Source: Patescibacteria group bacterium (GTDB taxonomy: Bacteria > Patescibacteriota > Patescibacteriia > Magasanikbacterales > UBA922). From it: DNA of 25,021 nucleotides. Positions 889 to 16,760 of the stretch are shown here, one piece after another. Position 1 is the stretch's first letter. The number at the start of each line of letters is the position of its first letter. The stretch lies in NCBI GenBank assembly GCA_038065575.1, contig JBBTQT010000136.1, forward strand, positions 1 to 25,021, in the 5' to 3' direction. Position numbers and translations under genes: made by a program. The notes below the pieces were generated by a model. That model had not been told where the DNA came from. It did no database searches and saw nothing but the letters and a program-made list of their open reading frames with translations.

Positions 889-1941
889 CTAGAGGTATTT
901 TTCCAACCCTTCTTCCTCTATTTTTTTCAAGATGTCTTTTATATTCGGCACTTTGTCTTTCGGGCAGACGAGGAGAGCGTCTTTGGTGTTCACCACCACC
1001 ATCCCCTCCGCTCCCACCACCGCGACTAACTTTTCTTCTTCGTTATTGTAAACAAACGAATCCCGTGATGAATCCAGAACGACCTTGCCTTTGGTAAAAT
1101 TATTTTCCGGATTAGGCGCCAAGGCCTCCTTCAAAGCGTAGAGCGTGCCCGGATCGCTCCAGCCCAAATCCACCTTCAACACCACCGCAGCCTCCGAACT
1201 GATTTTCTCCAAAATGGCGTTATCAAAAGAAATTTTTTCCAAATCCGGATACATTTTCTTGATTTTTTCCTCGTCGCCATTCATCTCATTCAGGGCGCGA
1301 TACATTTCCGGCTGATACTTTTCGTACAGCCCCAAAACAAAATCCAAATCAAAAATGAAATAACCGGGATTCCAAAGCCATTCGCCACTCTCAAACATTT
1401 TTTCGCATTCCGCTAATTCCGGACGGTATTTCCATCCCAAAAATTCGTGTTGTTGGCCGCTGATTTTTTCGCCAACCTTGATCCAACCCAAATTATGATT
1501 GGCGAATCTGGGTTTTTCTCCCAAAAATACCAGCCGTTCGGAATCCTCGGCAATCAATTCCTTACCTTTTTTGAGCGCGGCCACAAATTCCGCCGGATGA
1601 TCCATGAAATGATCCGCCCACAAGACCGCCACCGCGCCGGCGACACCCATTTTCTTTAATCTCGTCAAACTAAGTCCGACCGCGGCCGCCACATCGCGAC
1701 GCGCCGGCTCTCCGAGAATATGGTGAGCGGACAGTTCCGGTATCTGGGCGCGAACGAGAGAAATATATTCGTCATTGGTGGAAACGAACAAATTTTCCAT
1801 CCCAAATTCTCTTACTCTATCCACCGCCATTTGCAAAGTGGATTTATCATCCTTCAAAATTTCAAATTGTTTCGGAGAATTTCGGCGGCTCAAAGGCCAA
1901 AGCCTGGTCCCCGCTCCGCCAGCGAAAATTATGATATTCAT
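889..1941 (-). CDS. manC: Mannose-1-phosphate guanylyltransferase (ManC-like, no C-terminal cupin/PMI domain)
   Basis: IIFAGGAGTRLWPLSRRNSPKQF, EPARRD, WADH, WNPGYFIF, WSDPGT. Start set at MNIII (1941). Confidence 0.85.
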   Translation of the reverse strand: MNIIIFAGGAGTRLWPLSRRNSPKQFEILKDDKSTLQMAVDRVREFGMENLFVSTNDEYISLVRAQIPELSAHHILGEPARRDVAAAVGLSLTRLKKMGVAGAVAVLWADHFMDHPAEFVAALKKGKELIAEDSERLVFLGEKPRFANHNLGWIKVGEKISGQQHEFLGWKYRPELAECEKMFESGEWLWNPGYFIFDLDFVLGLYEKYQPEMYRALNEMNGDEEKIKKMYPDLEKISFDNAILEKISSEAAVVLKVDLGWSDPGTLYALKEALAPNPENNFTKGKVVLDSSRDSFVYNNEEEKLVAVVGAEGMVVVNTKDALLVCPKDKVPNIKDILKKIEEEGLEKYL

Positions 1942-1951
1942 AGTACAATAC

Positions 1952-2197
1952 AATTACGAATTAACCGCCTTCGTCCCGACTAAGTCGGGACTACGGACGG
2001 TCGAAGAAAATTATTTTATCCGCCATAGCTCAAAAGCGAAGGCGGACGAATTACGAATAATGAACATGTTGTATCACGTCATTGCGAGGAGCGAAGCGAC
2101 GTGGCAATCCCTTAGTTTATATCAAAGTACAAAGGGATTGCCACGTCGCTCACTGCGTTCGCTCCTCGCAATGACGTAAAATTTTTAATTCTTAATT
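1952..2197. repeat. Composite heptamer-armed element containing three nested palindromes
   Basis: AATTACGAATTAA at 1952-1964 and ACGAATTACGAAT at 2046-2058. Degenerate inverted arm GTAAAATTTTTAATTCTTAATT at 2176-2197. Hairpins at 1965-2000, 2020-2045 and 2076-2177. Confidence 0.75.
2076..2177. repeat. CGTC-type REP inverted doublet (GTCATTGCGAGG family)
   Basis: The 38-bp arm at 2076-2113 is matched by 2132-2177, perfectly except for an 8-nt insert (TCACTGCG). The spacer is 18 nt and AT-rich. Confidence 0.92.
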
Positions 2198-3294
2198 CCA
2201 TCGGTCTTTTTCCACTTCAAATACGCTTCCACAAACGGATCAAGCTCGCCATTCAATACCGCCTCGGTATCGGCCGTCTCGTAGCGCGTTCGCAAATCCT
2301 TGACCATGTGGTAGGGATGTAGCACATAAGATCTAATCTGACTGCCCCACTCCGGACTTTTGTATTCGCCACGCAATTTTTGGTGTTCTTCTTCTTCTTT
2401 TTCTTCCTGTAATTTTATCAGTTTTGAATGCAAAATTTTCAGGGCGGTTTCCTTGTTTTGCAATTGCGATCTTTCATTCTGACATTGCACGGTCGTGCCG
2501 GTCGGAAGGTGGACAATCCGCACCGCCGAATAAGTGGTATTGACGCTTTGGCCGCCCTTGCCGCCGGACATGAAAGTATCTATGCGCAAATCTTTGGGAT
2601 CAATTTCCACCATTTCGGCAGACTCAACCTCCGGTATCACCTCAATCAACGCGAACGAAGTATGACGCATTTTTTCGGCGTCAAAAGGAGAAATCCGCAC
2701 CAGCCGATGGGTGCCATGTTCACCCTGTAAATTGCCATACGCGTACCGTCCTTCAATCCGCAAAGTCGCGAGCTTGATGCCGGCCTCGGCTCCCTTAGCT
2801 TCATCCAATATCGTCACCATCCACTGTTTTTTTTCCGCGTAGCGCGTTATCATTCGCAACAGCATTTCCGCCCAATCTTGCGCCTCCGTGCCACCACTGC
2901 CGGAATGAATGGAAACAATGGCGTTTTTTTTGTCATTTTTTCCGTCAAAAAGCGCGAAAAATTCCAACTTGGCGAATTCACCATTCAATTCAGTGATTCT
3001 TTTGATTATTTCCTGTTTCAGGTCCGCGTCCGGTTGGCTGACCAATTCCGCGCAAAGACGAAGCAAATCCGCCACTTCTTGCTTCATTTTTGTCCAGGTT
3101 TCCGCTTCATCTTTCAATTCCTTGTACCGTTGCGCGGTCTTCTTGGCCTCTTCCTGATCCTCCCAAAAATCACCGGCCTGCATAAATTTCTCCAAACCAT
3201 GACTCTCGGCAATCATCTCATCAACCTTAAGCAAGCCCCAGGTAAAGGCGATTTTTTCTTGCAAAGATTCCAATTGGGCGATCTGATCATGCAT
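2185..3294 (-). CDS. prfB: Peptide chain release factor 2, single continuous ORF
   Basis: RISPFD (SPF specificity motif), GGKGGQSVN (GGQ) and WGSQIRSYVLHPY. Start set at MHDQIAQ (3294). Confidence 0.97.
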   Translation of the reverse strand: MHDQIAQLESLQEKIAFTWGLLKVDEMIAESHGLEKFMQAGDFWEDQEEAKKTAQRYKELKDEAETWTKMKQEVADLLRLCAELVSQPDADLKQEIIKRITELNGEFAKLEFFALFDGKNDKKNAIVSIHSGSGGTEAQDWAEMLLRMITRYAEKKQWMVTILDEAKGAEAGIKLATLRIEGRYAYGNLQGEHGTHRLVRISPFDAEKMRHTSFALIEVIPEVESAEMVEIDPKDLRIDTFMSGGKGGQSVNTTYSAVRIVHLPTGTTVQCQNERSQLQNKETALKILHSKLIKLQEEKEEEEHQKLRGEYKSPEWGSQIRSYVLHPYHMVKDLRTRYETADTEAVLNGELDPFVEAYLKWKKTDGIKN

Positions 3295-3348
3295 AATATG
3301 TTTTTCAATCTTATCCCAAATACCATAAAAAAACAAGCCTGCCGACCC

Positions 3349-3377
3349 TTGACTTTTTTCTATTTTTGAGGTAATTT
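3349..3377 (+). promoter_or_regulatory. Putative sigma70 promoter for the plus-strand gene
   Basis: TTGACT (3349-3354) - N17 - TAATTT (3372-3377). An AAGGAG SD-like site lies at 3409-3414. Confidence 0.5.
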
Positions 3378-3417
3378 TACTGACTGCCAGTAAAAACCCG
3401 TAAGGATTAAGGAGAGT

Positions 3418-3726
3418 ATGTCAACGATCATGGTTGTCGTAGAACATCGCCTTGATCCAAAAGAGGCGATCCGAAGAATCAAGGAGGCGTACATGGGCAA
3501 GAAGGCCAAGTACGCCAGCATCGCCACCGTTCAGACGGAGGAATGGGAGGATTTGGCCGGCGCGGTCACGGCCAGTGTGCTCGGAACAACCATCACCGGC
3601 ACAGTGCAGTGTCAAGAAGAGACGGTTACGGCCGTCTGTGAACTGCCTCTGCCCCTGAAGGTAATCTTCGGGCGTGATCTCCATGAAAAAATTGAGAACC
3701 GGCTCACAAGCCTGCTCTCAAAATAA
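3418..3726 (+). CDS. Polyhydroxyalkanoic-acid-system (PHA_gran_rgn-like) small protein
   Basis: 102 aa. The pattern HxLxxxEAxxRI...W...G...G...V...LP..L..F...IE..L resembles PF09650. Only plus-strand gene in the window. Confidence 0.65.
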   Translation: MSTIMVVVEHRLDPKEAIRRIKEAYMGKKAKYASIATVQTEEWEDLAGAVTASVLGTTITGTVQCQEETVTAVCELPLPLKVIFGRDLHEKIENRLTSLLSK

Positions 3727-3749
3727 AGTGGAGAAATTACTGGCAAAAG

Positions 3750-3778
3750 CTTGGGGTCGAGAAAATCTCGGCCCCAAG
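3750..3778 (+). terminator. GC-rich hairpin downstream of the PHA_gran_rgn-like gene (terminator or stability element)
   Basis: CTTGGGGTCGAG-AAAAT-CTCGGCCCCAAG, a 12-bp stem with one G-U pair. No U-tract follows. Confidence 0.45.
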
Positions 3779-3865
3779 TGAATGCCCCGCCGAAAAAATT
3801 ACAAATCATTCCCCGTGTACGAAAGATTTAAACTTTTATTTATCAAATGTCAATCATAATTCAAT

Positions 3866-3896
3866 AAAAAACGCTCGCTATTTCAGCGAGCGTTTT
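3866..3896 (-). terminator. Intrinsic terminator of groES-groEL
   Basis: Stem AAAACGCTCGCT / AGCGAGCGTTTT with a 5-nt loop. The minus-strand stem ends in a 6-T run. Confidence 0.85.
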
Positions 3897-3903
3897 CGTA
3901 CTT

Positions 3904-3932
3904 GTTCTATGTTCTATGCTCTATGTTCCATG
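3904..3932. repeat. Heptamer tandem array, second family (G-T/C-T-C-T/C-A-T x4)
   Basis: GTTCTAT GTTCTAT GCTCTAT GTTCCAT, immediately after the groEL stop. Confidence 0.85.
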
Positions 3933-3934
3933 CC

Positions 3935-5871
<1,937 letters not shown>

Positions 5872-5902
5872 ACCGATTGGAGTTAATAAATAAATTTAAG
5901 CT

Positions 5903-5929
5903 TTATCACTCTACCACCGAGAGTGATAA
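5903..5929. promoter_or_regulatory. CIRCE-like operator (HrcA site variant)
   Basis: TTATCACTC-N9-GAGTGATAA, against the canonical TTAGCACTC-N9-GAGTGCTAA, 31 nt upstream of groES. Confidence 0.85.
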
Positions 5930-5972
5930 TAGTCAAGACCCCATTTTAGCAGTAGTTTTCACTTTTTGTCAA
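5908..5972 (-). promoter_or_regulatory. Tandem sigma70-type promoters of groESL
   Basis: P1: TTGACA (5972-5967) - N18 - TAAAAT (5948-5943) with a TGn extension. P2: TTGACT (5936-5931) - N17 - TAGAGT (5913-5908) with TGn, overlapping the CIRCE. Confidence 0.65.
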
Positions 5973-6002
5973 GGCTCGTAAAAGACATTTTCCCCGCCAA
6001 AC

Positions 6003-6163
6003 AAAAAAGCCCAGAATAGGTAATGAGCTCGGTATGACGACCTTTACAAGCCAGCGATGCCTGTCAGCGGCGCTAACTTCCTGTGGCGTGCATTCCGTGC
6101 CTATTACCTATTATAGGCTCTTTATTTTCACCCCGCACTTATCAATAGATTATAAACACTAAT
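6003..6163 (-). ncRNA. Candidate structured small RNA, family unassigned
   Basis: Has its own consensus promoter and no ORF. Folds by eye into a rod-like hairpin (AATAGGTAAT 6015-6024 pairs with ATTACCTATT 6103-6112; AAGTTAGCG pairs with CGCTGGCTT) and ends in GGGCTTTTTT. Confidence 0.55.
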
Positions 6164-6169
6164 AAAGTT

Positions 6170-6198
6170 ATTATAGACTACTTGATCATCCCCGTCAA
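6170..6198 (-). promoter_or_regulatory. Near-consensus sigma70 promoter
   Basis: TTGACG (6198-6193) - N17 - TATAAT (6175-6170). Confidence 0.8.
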
Positions 6199-6241
6199 AT
6201 CAAAATTTAAGCTAAAATAAGCCAAAATCAATACCAGTGGA

Positions 6242-7573
6242 CTAACTGTGGACAGTTGGCCTGAAAATGATACCGAGATATGTCGCAAAGCTGAACATTT
6301 CGACCGGCAATGACCAAAAATAGTGATCAAACGATAATCCGAAAATAAGCGGAATGAGCAAAAACAACTCCAAATGCCAATTTTTCTTTGGTTTTATGAG
6401 GCGGAAATACCGTACAAATGAAGCCGACAACCCGAGGAAAATTATCACTCCGACCACCCCCATTTCGGCCGTAAACAACAGCGCCGTATTATGCGCCGGC
6501 TGATACTCCCAGCCCGGTCGGGAATTATCAAGGAGATACGCGGCGACGGTATAATTCCCGCTACCGACACCAAGCCAGGGATGGCGAGCGATAATTCGTC
6601 CTGCTTCGTCATATCCGGAAATTCGTTCTTGAACCGAGGTTATTTCCGAAGCGGAAATTCCCACCAGACGGGTTTTGACAAGAGGTGAGTAAATAATTCC
6701 GCCGATAAAAAAAATTAAAATCGGCAGTGATAAAAAAACAGCAAAGTTTTTTGACAAAGTTTTATTCCATAATCCCAAACCGCCGAACAGCGCGAACGCC
6801 GCCACGAGCATCCCCGCCGCGCTTCGGCTGAAAGAAAAAAATAAAGCGGCGGAAATAATGACAATGAACAAACTTAATATGATTTTTTTGCCTGATTTTT
6901 GAATCGGATTATCGGAAATGAAATAAAACACTGACATGAGTACCAGCGCGAGGTAACCGCCGAAAATATTGGGATGCGCGAATGATCCGTAAGCGCGCAG
7001 CCACCGGCCTGATCCCCCGACAATCGCCGTCCCCGCCTCGGACGGAAGATGCGCGGACAATCCGAGCCAAGGCGCCGGCCAGGTTGTTTGCGCGAGGAAT
7101 TGCGCGATACCCAAAATAGCCGGAATAACGCTCCCCAGCAGGAACCAAAAAATAATTTCTTTTTTAGTAGTCGGTCCGAGATAGATAACGAAAAAAAGCA
7201 AAATGGCTTCCAGTAGATGAATTGAGTGTTGAAAAGCGATTTCCCGAACCGGTGACCAAACGACGGACAGAAATGAATAGAGAATAAAAATCAAAACAAA
7301 CAGCGTGAACACCCGATCCGGCGTCCAAGAAAAAACAATTTTATTCTCTTTGACCGCCCGCGCCACTCGGCGCCCCGACCACCAAAAAAACAGCAAAAAA
7401 ACAATCCAGGCGACGGCCTCCGACAAAAAAAATTGGGTCGCGCCATACTGCCATTTATAACCGTTCAAATACCGTTCGCGAACAATCCAAACCGTTTGCC
7501 AAGGCAAGACAAATAGATACCCCCTTATAAGAACACGAAAAATCGTTTCCAGACTGATTTTTGAAATAAACAT
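6242..7573 (-). CDS. O-antigen ligase / Wzy_C family membrane protein
   Basis: Multi-pass membrane protein with RAYGSFAHPNIFGGYL, SFSRSA, GVGSGNY and PAHN motifs. Confidence 0.85.
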   Translation of the reverse strand: MFISKISLETIFRVLIRGYLFVLPWQTVWIVRERYLNGYKWQYGATQFFLSEAVAWIVFLLFFWWSGRRVARAVKENKIVFSWTPDRVFTLFVLIFILYSFLSVVWSPVREIAFQHSIHLLEAILLFFVIYLGPTTKKEIIFWFLLGSVIPAILGIAQFLAQTTWPAPWLGLSAHLPSEAGTAIVGGSGRWLRAYGSFAHPNIFGGYLALVLMSVFYFISDNPIQKSGKKIILSLFIVIISAALFFSFSRSAAGMLVAAFALFGGLGLWNKTLSKNFAVFLSLPILIFFIGGIIYSPLVKTRLVGISASEITSVQERISGYDEAGRIIARHPWLGVGSGNYTVAAYLLDNSRPGWEYQPAHNTALLFTAEMGVVGVIIFLGLSASFVRYFRLIKPKKNWHLELFLLIPLIFGLSFDHYFWSLPVEMFSFATYLGIIFRPTVHS

Positions 7574-7583
7574 GGCAGTGTAA

Positions 7584-7667
7584 GAATTACGAATTACGAA
7601 TTACGAATTTACGACTACGAAGTGCGTAAGGACACAATTCGTAATTCGTAATTTTTAATTCGTAATT
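7584..7667. repeat. Heptamer-armed inverted-repeat element (AATTACG family)
   Basis: Left arm (GAATTAC)x3 GAATT. Right arm GGACAC-AATTCGTAATTCGTAATTTTTAATTCGTAATT, which contains the stop codon of the upstream gene. Confidence 0.9.
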
Positions 7668-8593
7668 TTCTCGCGCCACCTCTCCCGATACTCCGCTCGC
7701 CGGTCGTTCTCGTGGAATTTCAGCATTTCATCATTCACGACGACGCCGATCCCGAGCGCGCGCCGTCGGTAATCATGATTTCCGGCTATTTTTTTCAACT
7801 GAATTTTTTTGCAAAAACCATTAAGGGCCTCGCCCGTTCGCCCGCTGAAAATTTTTTCAACCGCCGAGTGCGAAAAAAATTCCAATTTATTCAATTTGAC
7901 TTCTAAAATTGACGACAAACTGTAATTCGCGCGGTTATTTTTTACGAAATCGCGCGTCCAGGAATTTTCCGCCAAAACCCGGCAATAATACTCCGCCCCT
8001 CCATAAACCGGTAGGAGCATCAACAGCCAGTATATCAGGTAAACATCCGGAGGATCGAGAGAAACTCCGGACAAATTCAAACTGTTTTCCGTAACATAAA
8101 AACTCAAACAAACCCGATCGGCGATTTTGCGCCTTCCCCGGCGTAAGTTCGTGATACTCATGAGCAGGGTTACGAACATTCGAACGAGCCAGATTTTATC
8201 GTGAGCGGCCACGATAAACAAATCAATATCACTGTCCTTTTTCGGCCAGCCGGCCGCGAGCGTGTTGCAAACGAACACCGCTCGAACGAATGGCACACGG
8301 CTTATCATTTTGATGGCGCGACGGGCAATGCGCGTTTTATGCTCCACCAAAAGAACATTATTCAACCTGGTTTCAACAATTTTTTCCCGTCTCGGCAAAA
8401 AAAAGAAACCGTTTAGCCGACCAACCGATCCGGCCGTTATCGCGCGATCCAGAGCAAGCTGAAAATCAACGTGCGTGCCGCCAATCGGCCCGTCCCACAA
8501 GAAATGTTCCAGTTCGGACGCGGTGAGAGGATAATCAAAAATATCAAAATAAGCCAAAGTTTTTTTGATGCTGATGATAAAATCATCGATCAT
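7655..8593 (-). CDS. Nucleotidyltransferase-domain protein (CPR-type, N-terminal helical/wHTH region)
   Basis: KTLAYFDIFDYPLT at the N-terminus and the DSDIDLFIV Pol-beta-like NTase motif. Confidence 0.75.
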   Translation of the reverse strand: MIDDFIISIKKTLAYFDIFDYPLTASELEHFLWDGPIGGTHVDFQLALDRAITAGSVGRLNGFFFLPRREKIVETRLNNVLLVEHKTRIARRAIKMISRVPFVRAVFVCNTLAAGWPKKDSDIDLFIVAAHDKIWLVRMFVTLLMSITNLRRGRRKIADRVCLSFYVTENSLNLSGVSLDPPDVYLIYWLLMLLPVYGGAEYYCRVLAENSWTRDFVKNNRANYSLSSILEVKLNKLEFFSHSAVEKIFSGRTGEALNGFCKKIQLKKIAGNHDYRRRALGIGVVVNDEMLKFHENDRRAEYRERWREKITN

Positions 8594-11251: not shown

Positions 11252-11280
11252 ATAATACCACCGGCGCGACCGATTGTCAA
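11252..11280 (-). promoter_or_regulatory. Sigma70 promoter of nusA
   Basis: TTGACA (11280-11275) - N17 - TATTAT (11257-11252) with a TGn extension. Confidence 0.8.
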
Positions 11281-11330: not shown

Positions 11331-11657
11331 CTATTCGGTGAGCGCCGACAAGTAGTCCAAACAGCCATTCATGGTTTTGAAGGGTGTGCCGAGAAGCAGG
11401 CCTTCGCATTGACTGGCGCTTTTGGCCGCCCCGCAATAGTTGACAAGACTGTTACCAAGTCCGGAATCATATAACTGCGAGCCGTAAGCGCACCACACCG
11501 GCGAATTTTCTTCCCGGCTTTTGTCTCGTGACGCTAATGTAAAAGCGAAGACCGCGGAAGCACCACCCAAAAGAACCGCGGCCATTGCCAATTTAACCAA
11601 GGAGAAAGTTCTGGCTTTTACTTTGGAGTGGCGTCCGATTTTCTTGGGCGCGGGCAT
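11331..11657 (-). CDS. Hypothetical exported or membrane-anchored Cys-containing protein (108 aa)
   Basis: Basic N-terminus, hydrophobic KLAMAAVLLGGA segment and four Cys. Start set at MPAPKK, 4 nt after the upstream stop. Confidence 0.7.
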   Translation of the reverse strand: MPAPKKIGRHSKVKARTFSLVKLAMAAVLLGGASAVFAFTLASRDKSREENSPVWCAYGSQLYDSGLGNSLVNYCGAAKSASQCEGLLLGTPFKTMNGCLDYLSALTE

Positions 11658-11661
11658 AGGA

Positions 11662-12795
11662 TTATATTGCCGGGGTGGAGGTGGCAGGGGTTGTCGATGC
11701 GAGATAGAACTTAAAAAGTGTCGCGTCATCTAAACCTAGAGTAGAATACACATTTTTCCCATCTTTATTCCTGACAAGCGCGTAGACATTAGGGGATGCT
11801 TCGGACGCCACAAATATATAGCTACTGGATTTACCCCATTTGGCTTTACCCACATTTGATTTAAAAGCTACATTTTCTGGAAATGCCCCAAAATTGCCAC
11901 CATACACCACTAAAAATCCATACTCCACATTGCCGTCATCATTCAATACTTTGTCTACGCTAATTTTAACTTTCTTATGTTTCAAAGTATCATAGTTAAC
12001 CTTAACTACATTACCCGGGTACGGCAGATTCCCCTTTGCCATTGAATTATTATACACCATCGGATTGTTATTATTGACAACGCTGATTGTCGTCTGATCG
12101 ATAATCGGCTGTTTGGCAGTGGAGGTTGGAGTAATCGGAGTGGTAGATGTGGTGCTACTGGTAAAAGAAATTGCATTATAAAGCCACATATAAGTCCCAT
12201 CGTCAATTCCTAAGCCGGGAAATGTGAACAAATTGTCAGCGTTCTTAGCCAATACATACACATAGAATTTCGATTCTGTATTGACAAACATGTATTGTTT
12301 TGATTTTGTCCAGACCACTTTATCAATCACTTGACTCTTAAACGCCAAATTGTTATCAACAATGCTTGAATAGGTGTCATAAGACACATAGTAACCGTAA
12401 ACCGTATTGGCATCTGCATTATCAACCGCCTTAACAGTTACTACTACTTTATTATTGACGCTTTCGGACGAATATTGTCCCAAATAACCAAGATAATATG
12501 TCAAATTTCCTTGAGCAGCTGACATTTTTTGGGAAAATATTTGTTTAGCATTACCAGGTGCTTTTACTTCCAATGACACTTCCTTGATTACCGGCTGTAG
12601 GGCCTTATTGTACCCATACCCATATCCGCCCTTACCGGAACCGTCACTCCCCGCCCCACCCATTCCGGCCACGGCCGCCGCCGCGAGTGCCGCCGCTCCC
12701 AAAAATGCCACGGCGATCGCCATCTTGGCGGAAGTGACGACACCGGTCTTGACCTGAACGCCGACGGCTGGCGCGCTTGCTTCCAGTACTGACAT
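11662..12795 (-). CDS. Hypothetical surface protein with two tandem ~145-aa repeats
   Basis: Signal or anchor KMAIAVAFLGAA, Gly linker, GYGYGY, two homologous domains and Thr/Ser/Pro linkers. Confidence 0.8.
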   Translation of the reverse strand: MSVLEASAPAVGVQVKTGVVTSAKMAIAVAFLGAAALAAAAVAGMGGAGSDGSGKGGYGYGYNKALQPVIKEVSLEVKAPGNAKQIFSQKMSAAQGNLTYYLGYLGQYSSESVNNKVVVTVKAVDNADANTVYGYYVSYDTYSSIVDNNLAFKSQVIDKVVWTKSKQYMFVNTESKFYVYVLAKNADNLFTFPGLGIDDGTYMWLYNAISFTSSTTSTTPITPTSTAKQPIIDQTTISVVNNNNPMVYNNSMAKGNLPYPGNVVKVNYDTLKHKKVKISVDKVLNDDGNVEYGFLVVYGGNFGAFPENVAFKSNVGKAKWGKSSSYIFVASEASPNVYALVRNKDGKNVYSTLGLDDATLFKFYLASTTPATSTPAI

Positions 12796-12848
12796 AGAAT
12801 CAGAGTTAATGATAAATTGTTAAATAATCTCCAAAGATTTACTTATTT

Positions 12849-13853
12849 TTAACAAGCCACGCCGAGATACAGCGGATCATCTTTGAGTGGCGCGTTCAAT
12901 TCATCCAAACATTTTTTGGCCGCGTCCAATGTCGTCACTACGCCCAATTCCGCCAGCGAACATTTGCCGAGAGGATAAGACAGCAAAGCCCCGGCATCAA
13001 TCTCTAATGGCACAATCTGATTCCGCACGCTGAATAGCGGTATTCCTTTGTATACTCCCACGCAAGCGTATTTGAAGAGAATATCTTCAATCGCCTTTTT
13101 TGATAATTCCGGAAATCCTTTCAACCGTTCACCGCAAGCGTCCGGACTAGTGGCGCCGGTATCGCAAAATTTGGCGGTGTCCGTCGTTTCCGTCTGATTT
13201 TGCGTTTCAGCGGTGTCAGCTTGTTCGGTCTCGGCCGGTGGAACCGGAATATTCTCGGCCAAAGCGGACTTGACAACCGGCACGACCAAGTTTTTTTCGT
13301 TGTTGGTTTCATCAAATTCCGGAATATTTCCATCCGATTTATTTTCAACAAAATCAACATAGCCGAATATTCTTAATGACGAACCGTCAAAAACGGTTTC
13401 AACATCCCGATTAAGAACAATCTTCAGCATCGCGGTTTCGCCCGGCGCCAAATTGAATTTATTGTCCTCGCCGGCGGTTTCGCTTGATTTATCCGCCATT
13501 CCGATGGAAAGACCGGCATCATGGAATACGCCGGCCGGTTCAGTGGTAACGGCAATTTGAAACGGCTGACCGACCGTGGCCTTGCCGATATTCTGATATA
13601 CCACGCTAAGCTCCAGATCACTCGCGCCGTCATAATCGCCACTTACATTCAAAAACAAATCATTGACCACCAAATCCGGTTCTTTGAAATTCACCACAAC
13701 CGGCGGCGGAAGCGGGTCCCTTGATCTTGAACTCGGCAAACTCGGCCGAACCATACTGGCGGCGGCGAGCAAATTGGCTCCGCTGAGGAAAGCCAAAGCC
13801 ACGGCGATTTTCAGGCTGGAAATCGTACTTGTTTTCGCGACAATATCGTTCAT
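12849..13853 (-). CDS. Exported protein with a CARDB-like Ig domain and a Cys-rich C-terminus
   Basis: PDLVV...YQNIG...LAPGET...VD...IPEFDETNN resembles CARDB. N-terminal anchor KIAVALAFLSGA. Confidence 0.75.
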   Translation of the reverse strand: MNDIVAKTSTISSLKIAVALAFLSGANLLAAASMVRPSLPSSRSRDPLPPPVVVNFKEPDLVVNDLFLNVSGDYDGASDLELSVVYQNIGKATVGQPFQIAVTTEPAGVFHDAGLSIGMADKSSETAGEDNKFNLAPGETAMLKIVLNRDVETVFDGSSLRIFGYVDFVENKSDGNIPEFDETNNEKNLVVPVVKSALAENIPVPPAETEQADTAETQNQTETTDTAKFCDTGATSPDACGERLKGFPELSKKAIEDILFKYACVGVYKGIPLFSVRNQIVPLEIDAGALLSYPLGKCSLAELGVVTTLDAAKKCLDELNAPLKDDPLYLGVAC

Positions 13854-13877: not shown

Positions 13878-15071
13878 TTAGTGAATTTCCTCTTTGTCCA
13901 TCCCCACCCATTCCGCGACCACTTCCTTGATGTGATCCGCGTCCACTAACGGCCAATCGTTTTCCTCATCGCCATTTTTTTCTTCCACTTGAATTTGTTT
14001 CACTACTCGCACCGCCATTCCTCTTAATTTATGCAATTCATTGAAATCCTTGGTGTTTTCCTCCAATTTTAATAATCCGGCCAATTCTTTTTTCAATTTA
14101 TTTATTTTTTCCGAATTTACCGACCGGTTTTCCGCGTCAGCCAATTTTCGCGCCGCGCCGTGCAGAAGAGCCGCCGCGTGATCCGGAACGGCACCGGCCT
14201 CCACATTGACCATCGCCGCCGCTTCGTCAATCAAATCAATCGCCTTGTCCGGCAAACGCCGACCGGTGATGTACTCCTGCGAAAGAGTGACTGCCGCCCG
14301 AATCGCCTCGTCGGAAAATTTCACCTTGTGGTAGGTTTCATAATTCTTTTTAATGCCCTGAAGAATATTAATGGACTCTTCCACACTCGGTTCATCAACG
14401 AGAACGCGTTGAAAACGCCGATCCCAACTTTCTTCCGGTTGAATGTACTGCTCATATTCCTTTTGCGTGGTGGCGCCGATAAGCTGCATATCGCCGCGCG
14501 CGAGCGCCGGTTTCAAAATATCCGACAAATTCACCGACCCTTCCGCGCCTCGCGTCTGCATGACAGTATGGATTTCATCAATAAAAAGTATAATACTGCG
14601 ATTTGACAACCGGATTTCCTCCACCAGATGCTTGATTCTCTGCTCAAATTCACCGCGGTATTTGGTGCCGGCCAGTAATTCGGCCACTTGCAAGGATAGC
14701 ACTCTTTTCTTCGCGAGAATCGCCGGAACATCATTCGTAACGATCTTCAAAGCCAACCCCTCCACGATGGCGGTCTTCCCCACACCGGGCGGTCCGACCA
14801 AAATTGCGTTATTTTTGGCACGACGCGCCAAAATTTGCGTAACGCGCGTTATTTCTTTTTCCCGGCCGACAACCGGATCAATCGTTCCCTCGGCCGCGAG
14901 ACGGGTGACATCAATGGCGTATGAATCCAAGGTCTTCGTGCCGGTACCACCGCGCGAAAACGAAAAACCGCCCCCTTCCTTTCCTTTGGAAAAAAGATAA
15001 ATCGTCACGCCGGCCACCAGGAGAAATACCCCCGCCCAACGAAAGATATCGGGGAGAATCGTTGCGGTCAT
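13878..15071 (-). CDS. Membrane-anchored Clp/Hsp100-like ATPase containing only the first AAA+ module
   Basis: N-terminal TM helix (WAGVFLLVAGVTIYLF), DPVVGREKEI, Walker A GPPGVGKT, pore loop KYRGEFE, Walker B LFIDE, RRLPDKAIDLIDEAAA. Ends at EVVAEWVG, with no second NBD. Confidence 0.9.
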   Translation of the reverse strand: MTATILPDIFRWAGVFLLVAGVTIYLFSKGKEGGGFSFSRGGTGTKTLDSYAIDVTRLAAEGTIDPVVGREKEITRVTQILARRAKNNAILVGPPGVGKTAIVEGLALKIVTNDVPAILAKKRVLSLQVAELLAGTKYRGEFEQRIKHLVEEIRLSNRSIILFIDEIHTVMQTRGAEGSVNLSDILKPALARGDMQLIGATTQKEYEQYIQPEESWDRRFQRVLVDEPSVEESINILQGIKKNYETYHKVKFSDEAIRAAVTLSQEYITGRRLPDKAIDLIDEAAAMVNVEAGAVPDHAAALLHGAARKLADAENRSVNSEKINKLKKELAGLLKLEENTKDFNELHKLRGMAVRVVKQIQVEEKNGDEENDWPLVDADHIKEVVAEWVGMDKEEIH

Positions 15072-15186: not shown

Positions 15187-15369
15187 CTAAAAAAAACTTA
15201 TCAACATATTAAAAAGCCCAAATGACAGAATCAATGTGCATAACCCCAAACCGACTGCTACCAGCGTCATTTCCGCCGGTGAATTTTTAGGCAATTTTTT
15301 CCGCCCGACAAAAAACACCAAACCGCCAAACAATCCGACCAAAACCGGGCTTACAATTGATAAATCCAT
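15187..15369 (-). CDS. Small two-TM hypothetical protein (60 aa)
   Basis: Two hydrophobic stretches separated by GRKKLPKNSP. Overlaps the upstream gene by 19 nt. Confidence 0.55.
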   Translation of the reverse strand: MDLSIVSPVLVGLFGGLVFFVGRKKLPKNSPAEMTLVAVGLGLCTLILSFGLFNMLISFF

Positions 15370-16760
15370 AAATAACGGTTAATGGCAACGAAAGCGGGAT
15401 CGTTCAAAAATTGTTCTCTTTGCCACTGATCCCTTTCGCCCATAAAAATATATATTTCCTTTTCTTGATATTTCTGAAAAAGATTTTTCCTGACGTCGGA
15501 ATCGTTTGAGTACCAAAATCGCATCCATTCCTCCCTATTCCAACGGTTCGCTTCAAACATACCCGGAGCGATCACTTCGTGATTGCTAAAACCATACAGC
15601 CAAGGCGCGTAATAAGAAGACAGCGCCATGAGAGGTTTATTATTCGGCAAAACTTGCGTCTCTACTATGGCCGTAAATTCCGCCGCGGTCAGAAGCGGCC
15701 GGAAACCCGCAAGTTGATGCAGGCTCCTCCCGATTGATATGGCCACCGCTACCGCTAACATTATCTTCCAGATCGGCCTATGACCGAATTTATCAATCTC
15801 GCCACCGAGCCAACCGCAGGCAATGATAATCAAGACTATGTCCAAATAAACAAAATAACGGCGATACAAAACAAATCCACCGACGATCAACAAACTGTAA
15901 ATAAAGGCGAGGATGGAAATCAGAGGAACGCGCCGCCAGACAAAAAACACGCCGGCAACGGCAAAAGGAAAATACAACAGACCGGATCTCCAAAAATAAC
16001 TGAAATCAATGAACTGGCCGGTAAATTCGTTGGTTTCGGAAAATAGATAATTGCCAAATACCGGCACCGCGCCCTTCACAATGGTCAAATAATCAAGATA
16101 GCCCCGCCACTCCGGCCAATTCAAGCCGGCCACGGCCACCGCGGAAACGGCCAAGCTGATAATCAAAAACTTCCGGTCTTCTTTTCTGATGACACCATAC
16201 ACACTCAAACCCAAAAAAAACGGAATGAAAGATGGGGGGTGGATAGATCCGATCACGATCGCCGGCAGAATAATCAAATACGAACGAAACTCAAACAAGT
16301 AAAGCGCGAGCATCGTAAAAAAGACCGCCAGCAGATTGCGATAATAGTACCATTGATAAAATTCAAACTGTACGAGCGAAGTGGCCATGGCGAGAACCGC
16401 CAAGATCGCGGCCGTCCGATTGAACCATTTTTTCATGAGCGCGTATAGAAACACGACGATGCCAAGACTTATCAATAAATACCAACCGATCAATATCTCA
16501 GGAAGACTCGTCCGAATAACCAAGAGCGCGTTGGAAAAACCGGAAAAAGCGAAAGAAGGGGCGGTTGGGTCTCCCAAACGATCAAAGAAACCGACAATAT
16601 GATGCCGATAAATACCAAAATCATACCCGAAACCCCGCTCGCCATATCGCCAAATGAGATAAAGACGGTTCGCGAGGTAATACCCGAAAATCAAAAAAAC
16701 GGCCACGGTCGGTCGGGTAATTTTGATTCCATTCCGCCTGACTATTTCCAAAAATCTCAT
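15351..16760 (-). CDS. Multi-pass membrane protein, probable GT-C-fold glycosyltransferase
   Basis: About 11-12 hydrophobic segments, an acidic residue in the first external loop (GFGYDFGIY), the SIHP motif and a soluble C-terminal domain. Confidence 0.6.
   Translation of the reverse strand: MRFLEIVRRNGIKITRPTVAVFLIFGYYLANRLYLIWRYGERGFGYDFGIYRHHIVGFFDRLGDPTAPSFAFSGFSNALLVIRTSLPEILIGWYLLISLGIVVFLYALMKKWFNRTAAILAVLAMATSLVQFEFYQWYYYRNLLAVFFTMLALYLFEFRSYLIILPAIVIGSIHPPSFIPFFLGLSVYGVIRKEDRKFLIISLAVSAVAVAGLNWPEWRGYLDYLTIVKGAVPVFGNYLFSETNEFTGQFIDFSYFWRSGLLYFPFAVAGVFFVWRRVPLISILAFIYSLLIVGGFVLYRRYFVYLDIVLIIIACGWLGGEIDKFGHRPIWKIMLAVAVAISIGRSLHQLAGFRPLLTAAEFTAIVETQVLPNNKPLMALSSYYAPWLYGFSNHEVIAPGMFEANRWNREEWMRFWYSNDSDVRKNLFQKYQEKEIYIFMGERDQWQREQFLNDPAFVAINRYLWIYQL

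Follow-up and report, generated by a model that had tools for sequence, protein, structure and literature searches.

An N-terminal tag on diverse proteins of Magasanikbacterales is genomically coupled to a membrane-tethered half-Clp ATPase

Introduction

Three adjacent genes in a 25,021-nt stretch of Patescibacteria DNA (contig JBBTQT010000136.1 of assembly GCA_038065575.1; Magasanikbacterales, UBA922; genome 1.07 Mb), hereafter the window, encode proteins 1, 2 and 3, which share an N-terminal segment that we call the tag. Here we report that the tag is lineage-specific, N-terminal and genomically coupled to a membrane-tethered AAA+ ATPase that consists of the D1 half of a Clp protein and is referred to as half-Clp. 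In our estimate there is an even chance that the tag is a lineage-specific N-terminal signal anchor, the cytoplasmic tail of which serves as a handle for half-Clp, whose clients it marks. In the literature searched we found no description of the tag or of its pairing with half-Clp.

Results

Reality and specificity of the tag

An earlier note on this DNA had reported a 12-residue motif common to the three proteins. The motif is there: the translations of the open reading frames (ORFs) match the quoted segments exactly, and the strict pattern K.A.A..[FL]L[GS][GA]A falls on residues 15–26 of protein 1 (window 13776–13811), residues 24–35 of protein 2 (12691–12726) and residues 22–33 of protein 3 (11559–11594). 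Among the 9,472 six-frame ORFs (≥50 aa) of the genome the pattern is confined to these three; composition predicts about 0.005 matches, for a pattern that was itself set post hoc from the same sequences. Because of this origin, a leave-out profile was used, built from 28 N-termini of other genomes only. By this profile the three proteins rank 1st to 3rd of the 9,472 ORFs, at 41.6, 34.2 and 14.4 bits (the last being protein 3), and the next-best ORF of the genome reaches 7.5 bits. Thus, the hidden Markov model check that the earlier note had called for shows a specific profile, and generic Ala-rich signal peptides do not score, since even the best ORF without a tag stays at that low value.

The description of the three as otherwise dissimilar was equally apt: outside the N-terminus, comparing them in pairs by BLASTP gives no significant match (E 0.027 to above 0.4). 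A relationship between the Cys-rich C-terminus of protein 1 and protein 3 was considered and rejected (BLASTP E 1.5). The motif had further been described as conserved in protein and not in DNA, which is what we find, with 22 invariant columns of 99 in the motif DNA. As the tag DNA is not conserved between the three genes, selection acts on the tag peptide; an explanation at the DNA level, be it regulatory or recombinational, was rejected on the same ground.

Anatomy of the tag

The 12-residue motif is part of something larger. Thus, the conserved block is about 33 residues long and includes an upstream K-T/T-x-T-K tail, so that the unit consists of a Thr/Lys-rich tail followed by an Ala-rich hydrophobic core. 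In the core, 33 N-termini from many genera align without gaps, with the consensus K-M-A-I-A-x-A-F-L-G-x-A-A-L-A-A-A-A-A-G. Information content rises at the tail, T-x-T-K-T-x-[TS]-[VI]-[ST]-x-T-K, is high across [ML]-A-[VI]-A-x-A-F-L-G-x-A-A-[LV]-A-A-A-A-A-G, and drops sharply right after the closing Gly.

Statistics were taken over 137 tag-bearing proteins. The tail, from the Met to the conserved Lys, has a median length of 19 aa (interquartile range 16–22); Thr makes up 28% of it and Lys 16%. A core of exactly 19 aa is found in 106 of the 137 proteins and one of 20 aa in another 24, which is long for the hydrophobic region (h-region) of a signal peptide; the core contains 41% Ala, 16% Leu and 11% Gly, with a mean Kyte–Doolittle hydropathy of 2.0. 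The 15 residues that precede the core have a net charge of +2.35, compared with +0.54 for the 15 that follow. The topology we infer is N-in/C-out, which is favoured by these flanking charges and the positive-inside rule. At least two Cys residues are present in 112 of the 137 mature parts, consistent with these being extracytoplasmic domains. AlphaFold2 models place a helix on the core, at residues 14–26 in protein 1 and 24–43 in protein 2.

Features of a Sec-type signal are present, namely a basic n-region followed by a hydrophobic h-region. The end of the core, A-A-A-A-A-G, fits the −3/−1 rule of signal peptidase I (SPase I), for which the genome has one gene, on another contig. Other known signals find no match here, as the earlier note had concluded. 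There is no lipobox: the three tags are without Cys, and only 12 of the 137 members have any Cys in tail and core. There is no twin-arginine translocation (Tat) motif either, RR being absent and the model TIGR01409 matching two of the 33 N-termini at E 0.53 only. Nor is it a class III prepilin site, given a Lys before the core, no Glu at +5 and no match to an N_methyl/prepilin model. The YSIRK, KxYKxGKxW, SipW-cognate and ESPR models gave nothing at E ≤ 1 with the 33 N-termini or the three full proteins; indeed, Pfam and NCBIfam scans returned no known family or signal model for either set.

Distribution of the tag

The tag family was found through profile and whole-genome searches. At E ≤ 1e-3 the tag occurs in 69 of 240 Magasanikbacterales genomes, with one to six copies in each, and these genomes are mostly from the window's own family (51 of 106). 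Outside the order, a sample of 401 genomes of the class contains only weaker, looser matches. An exhaustive HMMER scan of 1.84 billion representative proteins gave 136 matches at E ≤ 1e-3, all of them near the N-terminus, and the projected tag start is at a median of residue 1. Word-indexed homologue searches yielded little, namely a single Logan contig that encodes two relatives of proteins 1 and 2, and a protein whose similarity is limited to the N-terminus. The existence of the tag, its specificity, its N-terminal position and its restriction to the lineage are thus direct observations. They support the earlier note, which had proposed a lineage-specific sorting or anchoring signal or, as another option, a helix-packing motif for co-assembly: the tag proper belongs to Magasanikbacterales alone, and other orders of the class have looser forms of it.

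The tag-bearing proteins range from 59 to 1,009 aa, with ectodomains of about 20 to about 970 residues. In the genome of the window the tag is found on only three proteins and is not a proteome-wide signal. A separate observation concerns the locus L041 (G048:C16), where a giant ORF of 2,428 aa (1151–8437) lies directly upstream of two tandem tag genes and has an N-terminus that is itself a weaker tag match, at 35 bits.

The half-Clp ATPase and its pairing with the tag

Half-Clp has one N-terminal transmembrane (TM) helix, a Gly-rich linker of about 20 residues and a ClpC/ClpB-type D1 AAA+ module. This module matches ClpC D1 (3j3s) at E 8e-92 and the Pfam families AAA and AAA_lid_9, and it keeps the pore-loop Tyr motif KYRGEFE. 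Both D2 and the Clp N-domain are absent: the protein ends at residue 397, after D1 and its linker, and the TM helix, conserved between the window and locus L002, takes the place of the N-domain. The orthologues have frames of 323–486 aa, or about 230–470 aa when counted within the order, as opposed to the ClpB/C proteins of about 880 aa in the same genomes; within the order the two groups separate cleanly, with half-Clp orthologues at E < 1e-92 and ClpB/C at about 1e-85.

Among the 240 Magasanikbacterales genomes, 63 have both tag and half-Clp, six the tag only, 15 half-Clp only and 156 neither; these counts are descriptive, the genomes being related and not independent. The two also co-vary within genera, as in g22, g16, g40, g37, g12 and g13. 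For example, in g22 four genomes have both (G195, G197, G198 and G199) and three have neither (G021, G196 and G200), and in g16 both are present in G015 and G230 and absent from eight others. Three of the six tag-only genomes are contig-edge artefacts. In nearly all half-Clp-only genomes, the gene beside the ATPase encodes a diverged Thr/Lys tail and an Ala/Gly-rich helix.

The pairing extends to gene position. Of the 63 genomes with both, 35 have no more than 600 nt between the half-Clp gene and the start of a tag gene; in 18 more a tag gene lies within 3.5 kb on the same contig, and in one it is 7 kb away. In the remaining nine, which are fragmented assemblies, the two are on different contigs. 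In other words, 53 of the 54 genomes in which a single contig carries both have a tag gene no further than 3.5 kb from half-Clp. The adjacency survives the loss of the nusA context seen in the window (L002, L045, L051). It also has a counterpart beyond the order: half-Clp occurs in about 34 of the 401 genomes of the class sample, and at least 22 of the 27 half-Clp loci that were retrieved outside the order have a neighbouring gene for a T/K-rich tail (TKTKV-type) followed by one TM helix. These other-order partners are often small, at 81–116 aa, and carry G-[FY]-G-[FY]-G-[WY]-P after the helix, recalling protein 2. Co-occurrence and adjacency of tag and half-Clp were therefore observed as such. 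The earlier note had advised looking for a co-occurring peptidase or transporter; a machine is indeed encoded next door, but it is a membrane-tethered, D1-only Clp AAA+ ATPase and belongs to neither category.

Domains behind the tag

The earlier note had also held that the tags are followed by unrelated extracellular domains. This is right for the three window proteins but not across the family, where many mature parts are related via CARDB-like domains. Thus, 21 of 119 tag-bearing proteins match Pfam CARDB (PF07705; best E 1.5e-15); one is a leucine-rich repeat protein, one a reprolysin-like metalloprotease and the rest are unannotated. The mature parts form 34 BLAST components, the largest of which comprises 89 of 133 proteins and is probably linked via shared domains. 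Use of the tag is modular, in that the mature parts fall into many components and domain types, though many of the carriers are paralogues.

In the model of protein 1, residues 61–192 form a beta-sandwich (predicted local distance difference test score, pLDDT, about 80–90). The protein has no Pfam match at E ≤ 1; its language-model neighbours are CARDB clusters at 0.86, which we take as a lead only, and Foldseek against the PDB gave matches to Ig-like sandwiches that all fall below significance (best E 5.5e-3). Residues ~225–334 (window 12849–13180) form an alpha/beta domain of about 105 aa with conserved Cys (pLDDT about 90), which has no Pfam or PDB match and which occurs once in protein 1 and in two or three copies in the relatives P0074, P0092 and P0011. 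For protein 2 the Atlas yielded no usable result. The four-Cys domain of protein 3 is common to three other short proteins.

In protein 2, residues ~53–62 (window 12610–12640), and in its relatives, a GGYGYGY stretch lies just after the TM helix. The related G-[FY]-G-[FY]-G-[WY]-P occupies the same place in the small half-Clp partners of other orders at L122, L123, L125, L130 and L136. This Gly-aromatic motif may be an old membrane-interface element of the core partner.

Gene layout in the window

The genes form a tight cluster of six, all running in the same direction on the minus strand and followed by nusA and yidC (Table 1). The gaps are 24 nt from half-Clp to protein 1, 53 nt from protein 1 to protein 2, and 4 nt from protein 2 to protein 3. 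The start of protein 3 at 11657 is backed by homologues of 108–156 aa, one of which has a canonical tag. The two-helix protein of 60 aa has a counterpart of 58 aa at the same position in locus L002. A promoter-like site is found only after protein 3, ahead of nusA, and this candidate likely marks the downstream end of the cluster. The DNA of the window occurs in groundwater metagenomes; the runs containing it are DNA metagenomes only. In the closest relative, locus L001, a 730-aa protein (2094–4286) with no tag or TM helix at its start fills the slot of protein 3, between the homologue of protein 2 and nusA.

Table 1. Features of the gene cluster, in coordinates of the window
Feature	Coordinates	Strand	Description
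GT-C-like protein	15351..16760	-	469 aa, polytopic membrane protein, predicted GT-C glycosyltransferase fold (PMT_2/STT3-like)
Small membrane protein	15187..15369	-	60 aa, two helices; between GT-C gene and half-Clp gene
Half-Clp ATPase	13878..15071	-	397 aa, membrane-tethered; stop 24 nt upstream of protein 1
Protein 1	12849..13853	-	334 aa: tag, Pro-rich linker, CARDB-like beta-sandwich, acidic linker, ~105-aa Cys-containing alpha/beta domain
Protein 2	11662..12795	-	377 aa: tag, Gly/Tyr stretch GGYGYGY, two ~140-aa beta-rich repeats with Ser/Thr-rich linkers between
Protein 3	11331..11657	-	108 aa: long basic tail, tag core, ~60-aa domain with four Cys
Tag block of protein 1	13752..13835	-	Residues 7-34: K-T tail, invariant Lys15, Ala-rich hydrophobic core
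Tag block of protein 2	12667..12750	-	Residues 16-43; of the three, nearest the family consensus
Tag block of protein 3	11535..11618	-	Residues 14-41; most diverged copy
Promoter-like site	11252..11280	-	Near-consensus TTGACA-17-TATTAT with TG; pattern match only

Other recurrent neighbours

The 469-aa protein at the upstream end of the cluster has no Pfam match; its Atlas model (predicted TM-score 0.84) resembles clusters of the PMT_2/STT3 type with TM-scores of 0.75–0.86. Of the 240 genomes, 25 have its gene, and 20 of these 25 carry the tag as well; the gene frequently adjoins tag genes, also where half-Clp is elsewhere. By this distribution the GT-C-like protein is an accessory and not a core component. 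Polytopic proteins with a Wzy_C (O-antigen-ligase-like) domain were seen beside pairs of half-Clp and a tail-anchor protein at L097, L099, L100, L101, L125 and L136 (Pfam E 1e-12 to 1e-16), so that in other lineages a Wzy_C protein holds a place similar to that of the GT-C-like protein. The Wzy_C gene of the window (6242–7573) is 4 kb downstream, beyond nusA and yidC. Taken with the Ser/Thr-rich linkers, the GT-C and Wzy_C neighbours suggest that the tagged proteins may be glycosylated outside the membrane.

The peptidase search found SPase I and two M50 genes on other contigs of the genome, not linked to the locus, and no sortase in the genome. One M50 frame of the window genome, of 219 aa, is on contig C48. 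An M50-type gene was considered as a part of the system and rejected, as such genes for small membrane metalloproteases (HExxH) stand beside half-Clp in only two of the fetched loci (L106, 3783–4418; L107, 3470–4141). At L124 (2625–3401) and L128 (685–1464) an unannotated membrane protein of about 258 aa with a HELSH motif is encoded beside half-Clp. Finally, a two-helix membrane protein of about 80 aa (start MKYI.G..) is encoded just upstream of the methyltransferase/YraN genes that precede half-Clp in many Magasanikbacteria (L067–L072, L044, L096 and others).

Discussion

The arrangement that we consider has the tagged proteins begin with a cytoplasmic Thr/Lys-rich tail, followed by an Ala/Gly-rich TM helix of fixed length (19–20 residues) that would presumably be inserted by Sec/YidC in the N-in/C-out orientation. 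Outside the cell would be the variable, Cys-containing and probably glycosylated ectodomains. Half-Clp would sit under the membrane, held by its own TM helix and the Gly-rich linker of about 20 residues. The tail, at about 19 residues, would then be a likely handle for the pore loops of half-Clp, through which tagged proteins might be extracted, turned over or released. Two considerations led us to this mechanism. One is geometry: a tail of about 19 residues next to a weakly hydrophobic helix would face a ring with intact pore loops some 20 residues below the membrane. The other is an analogy with FtsH and Msp1. That the tag would be retained and not cleaved, and that the tail would enter the pore, is what we infer from them.

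Several facts weigh against this signal-anchor proposal. Removal of the tag by SPase I would sever the link between ectodomain and ATPase. Basic residues often follow the core, as in proteins 1 and 3. To our knowledge, no activity has been demonstrated for a Clp D1 ring without D2, N-domain or adaptor. The genome counts overstate the support, because the genomes are related, and one genome, G022, is a real exception, with a tag protein and no half-Clp found. Lastly, 39 of 105 tag matches are away from half-Clp, so the relation of tag to half-Clp is many-to-one.

Other explanations of the same data have been weighed. The tags are short, low-complexity stretches with much Ala and Gly, which is what one would expect if the resemblance were a chance or compositional artefact of Ala-rich hydrophobic segments. 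Against such an artefact, the leave-out profile picks out the three proteins, 33 sequences from many genera stay in ungapped register, and 136 matches in 1.84 billion proteins are solely N-terminal; its probability is practically nil. A more serious alternative is that the tagged proteins are a fast-evolving, paralogous family of surface proteins and the tag is their ordinary Sec signal peptide or signal anchor, the N-terminus being kept by descent and export constraints and the adjacency of half-Clp being inherited gene order. The classical layout (basic n-region, hydrophobic h-region, Ala-rich end), the SPase I gene, the many paralogues implied by 89 of 133 mature parts in one BLAST component, and the broadly conserved gene order around nusA/yidC in the family all speak for it. 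However, other exported proteins of the same genome do not score, the length and sequence of the core are far more constrained than Sec needs, and the tag also heads unrelated architectures. Furthermore, within genera the gain or loss of the tag goes with that of half-Clp, and the two are adjacent despite differing surroundings, including in other orders. We therefore regard an ordinary Sec signal as rather improbable.

The tag could also be a docking or co-assembly module, in which tail and helix bind the TM helix and ring of half-Clp as stable subunits, and ectodomains are displayed on, or signal through, a hetero-oligomeric complex without being threaded. Indeed, the core length is fixed, its best-conserved positions hold small residues (A, G, A, A) with the i, i+4, i+7 spacing of helix-packing faces, and conservation between the window and L002 extends to the TM helix of half-Clp itself. 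In addition, the partners in other orders, often 81–116 aa with tail, TM helix and Gly-aromatic motif, look more like subunits than like secreted precursors. What makes docking an unlikely account in our view is the many-to-one relation, with one to six tagged proteins per genome and 39 of 105 encoded elsewhere, together with the intact pore-loop motif of half-Clp, which is typical of threading enzymes. Finally, the N-terminal helix and Ig-like sandwich of protein 1 weakly resemble archaeal pilins and FlaF/FlaG, and the tagged proteins might be subunits of a pilus-like fibre, with a leader that is cleaved off, a core built from the Ala-rich helices and half-Clp as the source of energy for extraction. 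This is very improbable: the Foldseek matches (best E 5.5e-3) are below significance, there is no Gly at −1, no Glu at +5 and no match to an N_methyl/prepilin model, the ectodomains vary from about 20 to about 970 residues, and the locus has no linked gene for a platform protein or a prepilin peptidase.

Returning to the signal anchor with its tail as a handle, one may go further and propose that tag and half-Clp make up a previously unknown ATP-driven surface-protein pathway in Patescibacteria. Thus, a membrane-bolted, single-ring Clp would grip the Thr/Lys tail of tagged, glycosylated anchor proteins and pull on the weakly hydrophobic helix, to dislocate, release or recycle these proteins or to drive their display. 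We put this forward tentatively, as a possibility that we think somewhat unlikely to hold as a whole. If true, the pathway would be a bacterial counterpart of Msp1/Cdc48-type membrane extraction with a sequence tag of its own.

Comparison with known systems places the pairing between several of them. In Gram-positive bacteria, the KxYKxGKxW motif of accessory Sec and the YSIRK-G/S motif are lineage-restricted elements of extended N-terminal export signals on diverse surface proteins. The tag resembles both, as a lineage-restricted N-terminal motif on otherwise diverse surface proteins; unlike them, it matches no Pfam or NCBIfam signal model and its conservation spans the whole hydrophobic core. 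In accessory Sec, the genes for Ser/Thr-rich substrates have next to them those for a dedicated ATPase and for glycosyltransferases, and Gly residues within the hydrophobic core are important. Here, by contrast, the neighbouring ATPase gene encodes a TM-anchored Clp D1 AAA+ module and not SecA2, and no SecY2-like channel is linked.

FtsH, Msp1/ATAD1 and Bcs1 are AAA+ machines tethered to the membrane, and their targets are tails that adjoin TM helices. Half-Clp appears to be built alike, with a predicted N-terminal TM helix, a cytoplasmic AAA+ ring and an intact pore loop, and the tagged proteins would offer a cytoplasmic tail of about 19 residues directly before a weakly hydrophobic helix, a geometry on which such machines rely. 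Half-Clp differs from FtsH, Msp1 and Bcs1 in belonging to the Clp/Hsp100 class I D1 lineage and in having no protease domain. Families of variable surface proteins, such as the variable lipoproteins of Mycoplasma, share with the tagged proteins a conserved N-terminus followed by highly divergent surface regions, and tandem genes. Unlike in those lipoproteins, the tag has no lipobox Cys and its DNA is not conserved among paralogues, and therefore recombination-based switching is not indicated.

A further group, PEP-CTERM/exosortase, GlyGly-CTERM/rhombosortase and MYXO-CTERM/myxosortase, consists of signal/enzyme pairs that were recognized by phylogenetic profiling (PMC1569441, PMC3237569, PMC11980579). 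The pairing described here is similar in having a short terminal homology domain (motif, TM helix and charged segment), a many-to-one relation with one membrane protein, matching presence and absence, and frequent adjacency. The CTERM signals are C-terminal, however, and their partners are peptidases or transpeptidases, whereas here the tag is N-terminal and the partner is an ATPase without a protease domain.

Patescibacteria (also known as CPR) are ultrasmall and many are thought to live attached to other cells; their surface biology is almost unknown and many of their surface proteins are unannotated. For these genomes the tag provides a means to list a defined set of surface proteins, and through the pairing the orphan half-Clp gains a candidate class of substrates and, in the Thr/Lys tail, a recognition element that can be tested. 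If the pairing is a functional one, the tag would be the first of the sorting type to have an AAA+ unfoldase as its partner and not a peptidase or a Sec/Tat-type translocase, and the two would form a simple two-component system that could be rebuilt in a model host. The pairing thus points to an undescribed way of handling surface proteins.

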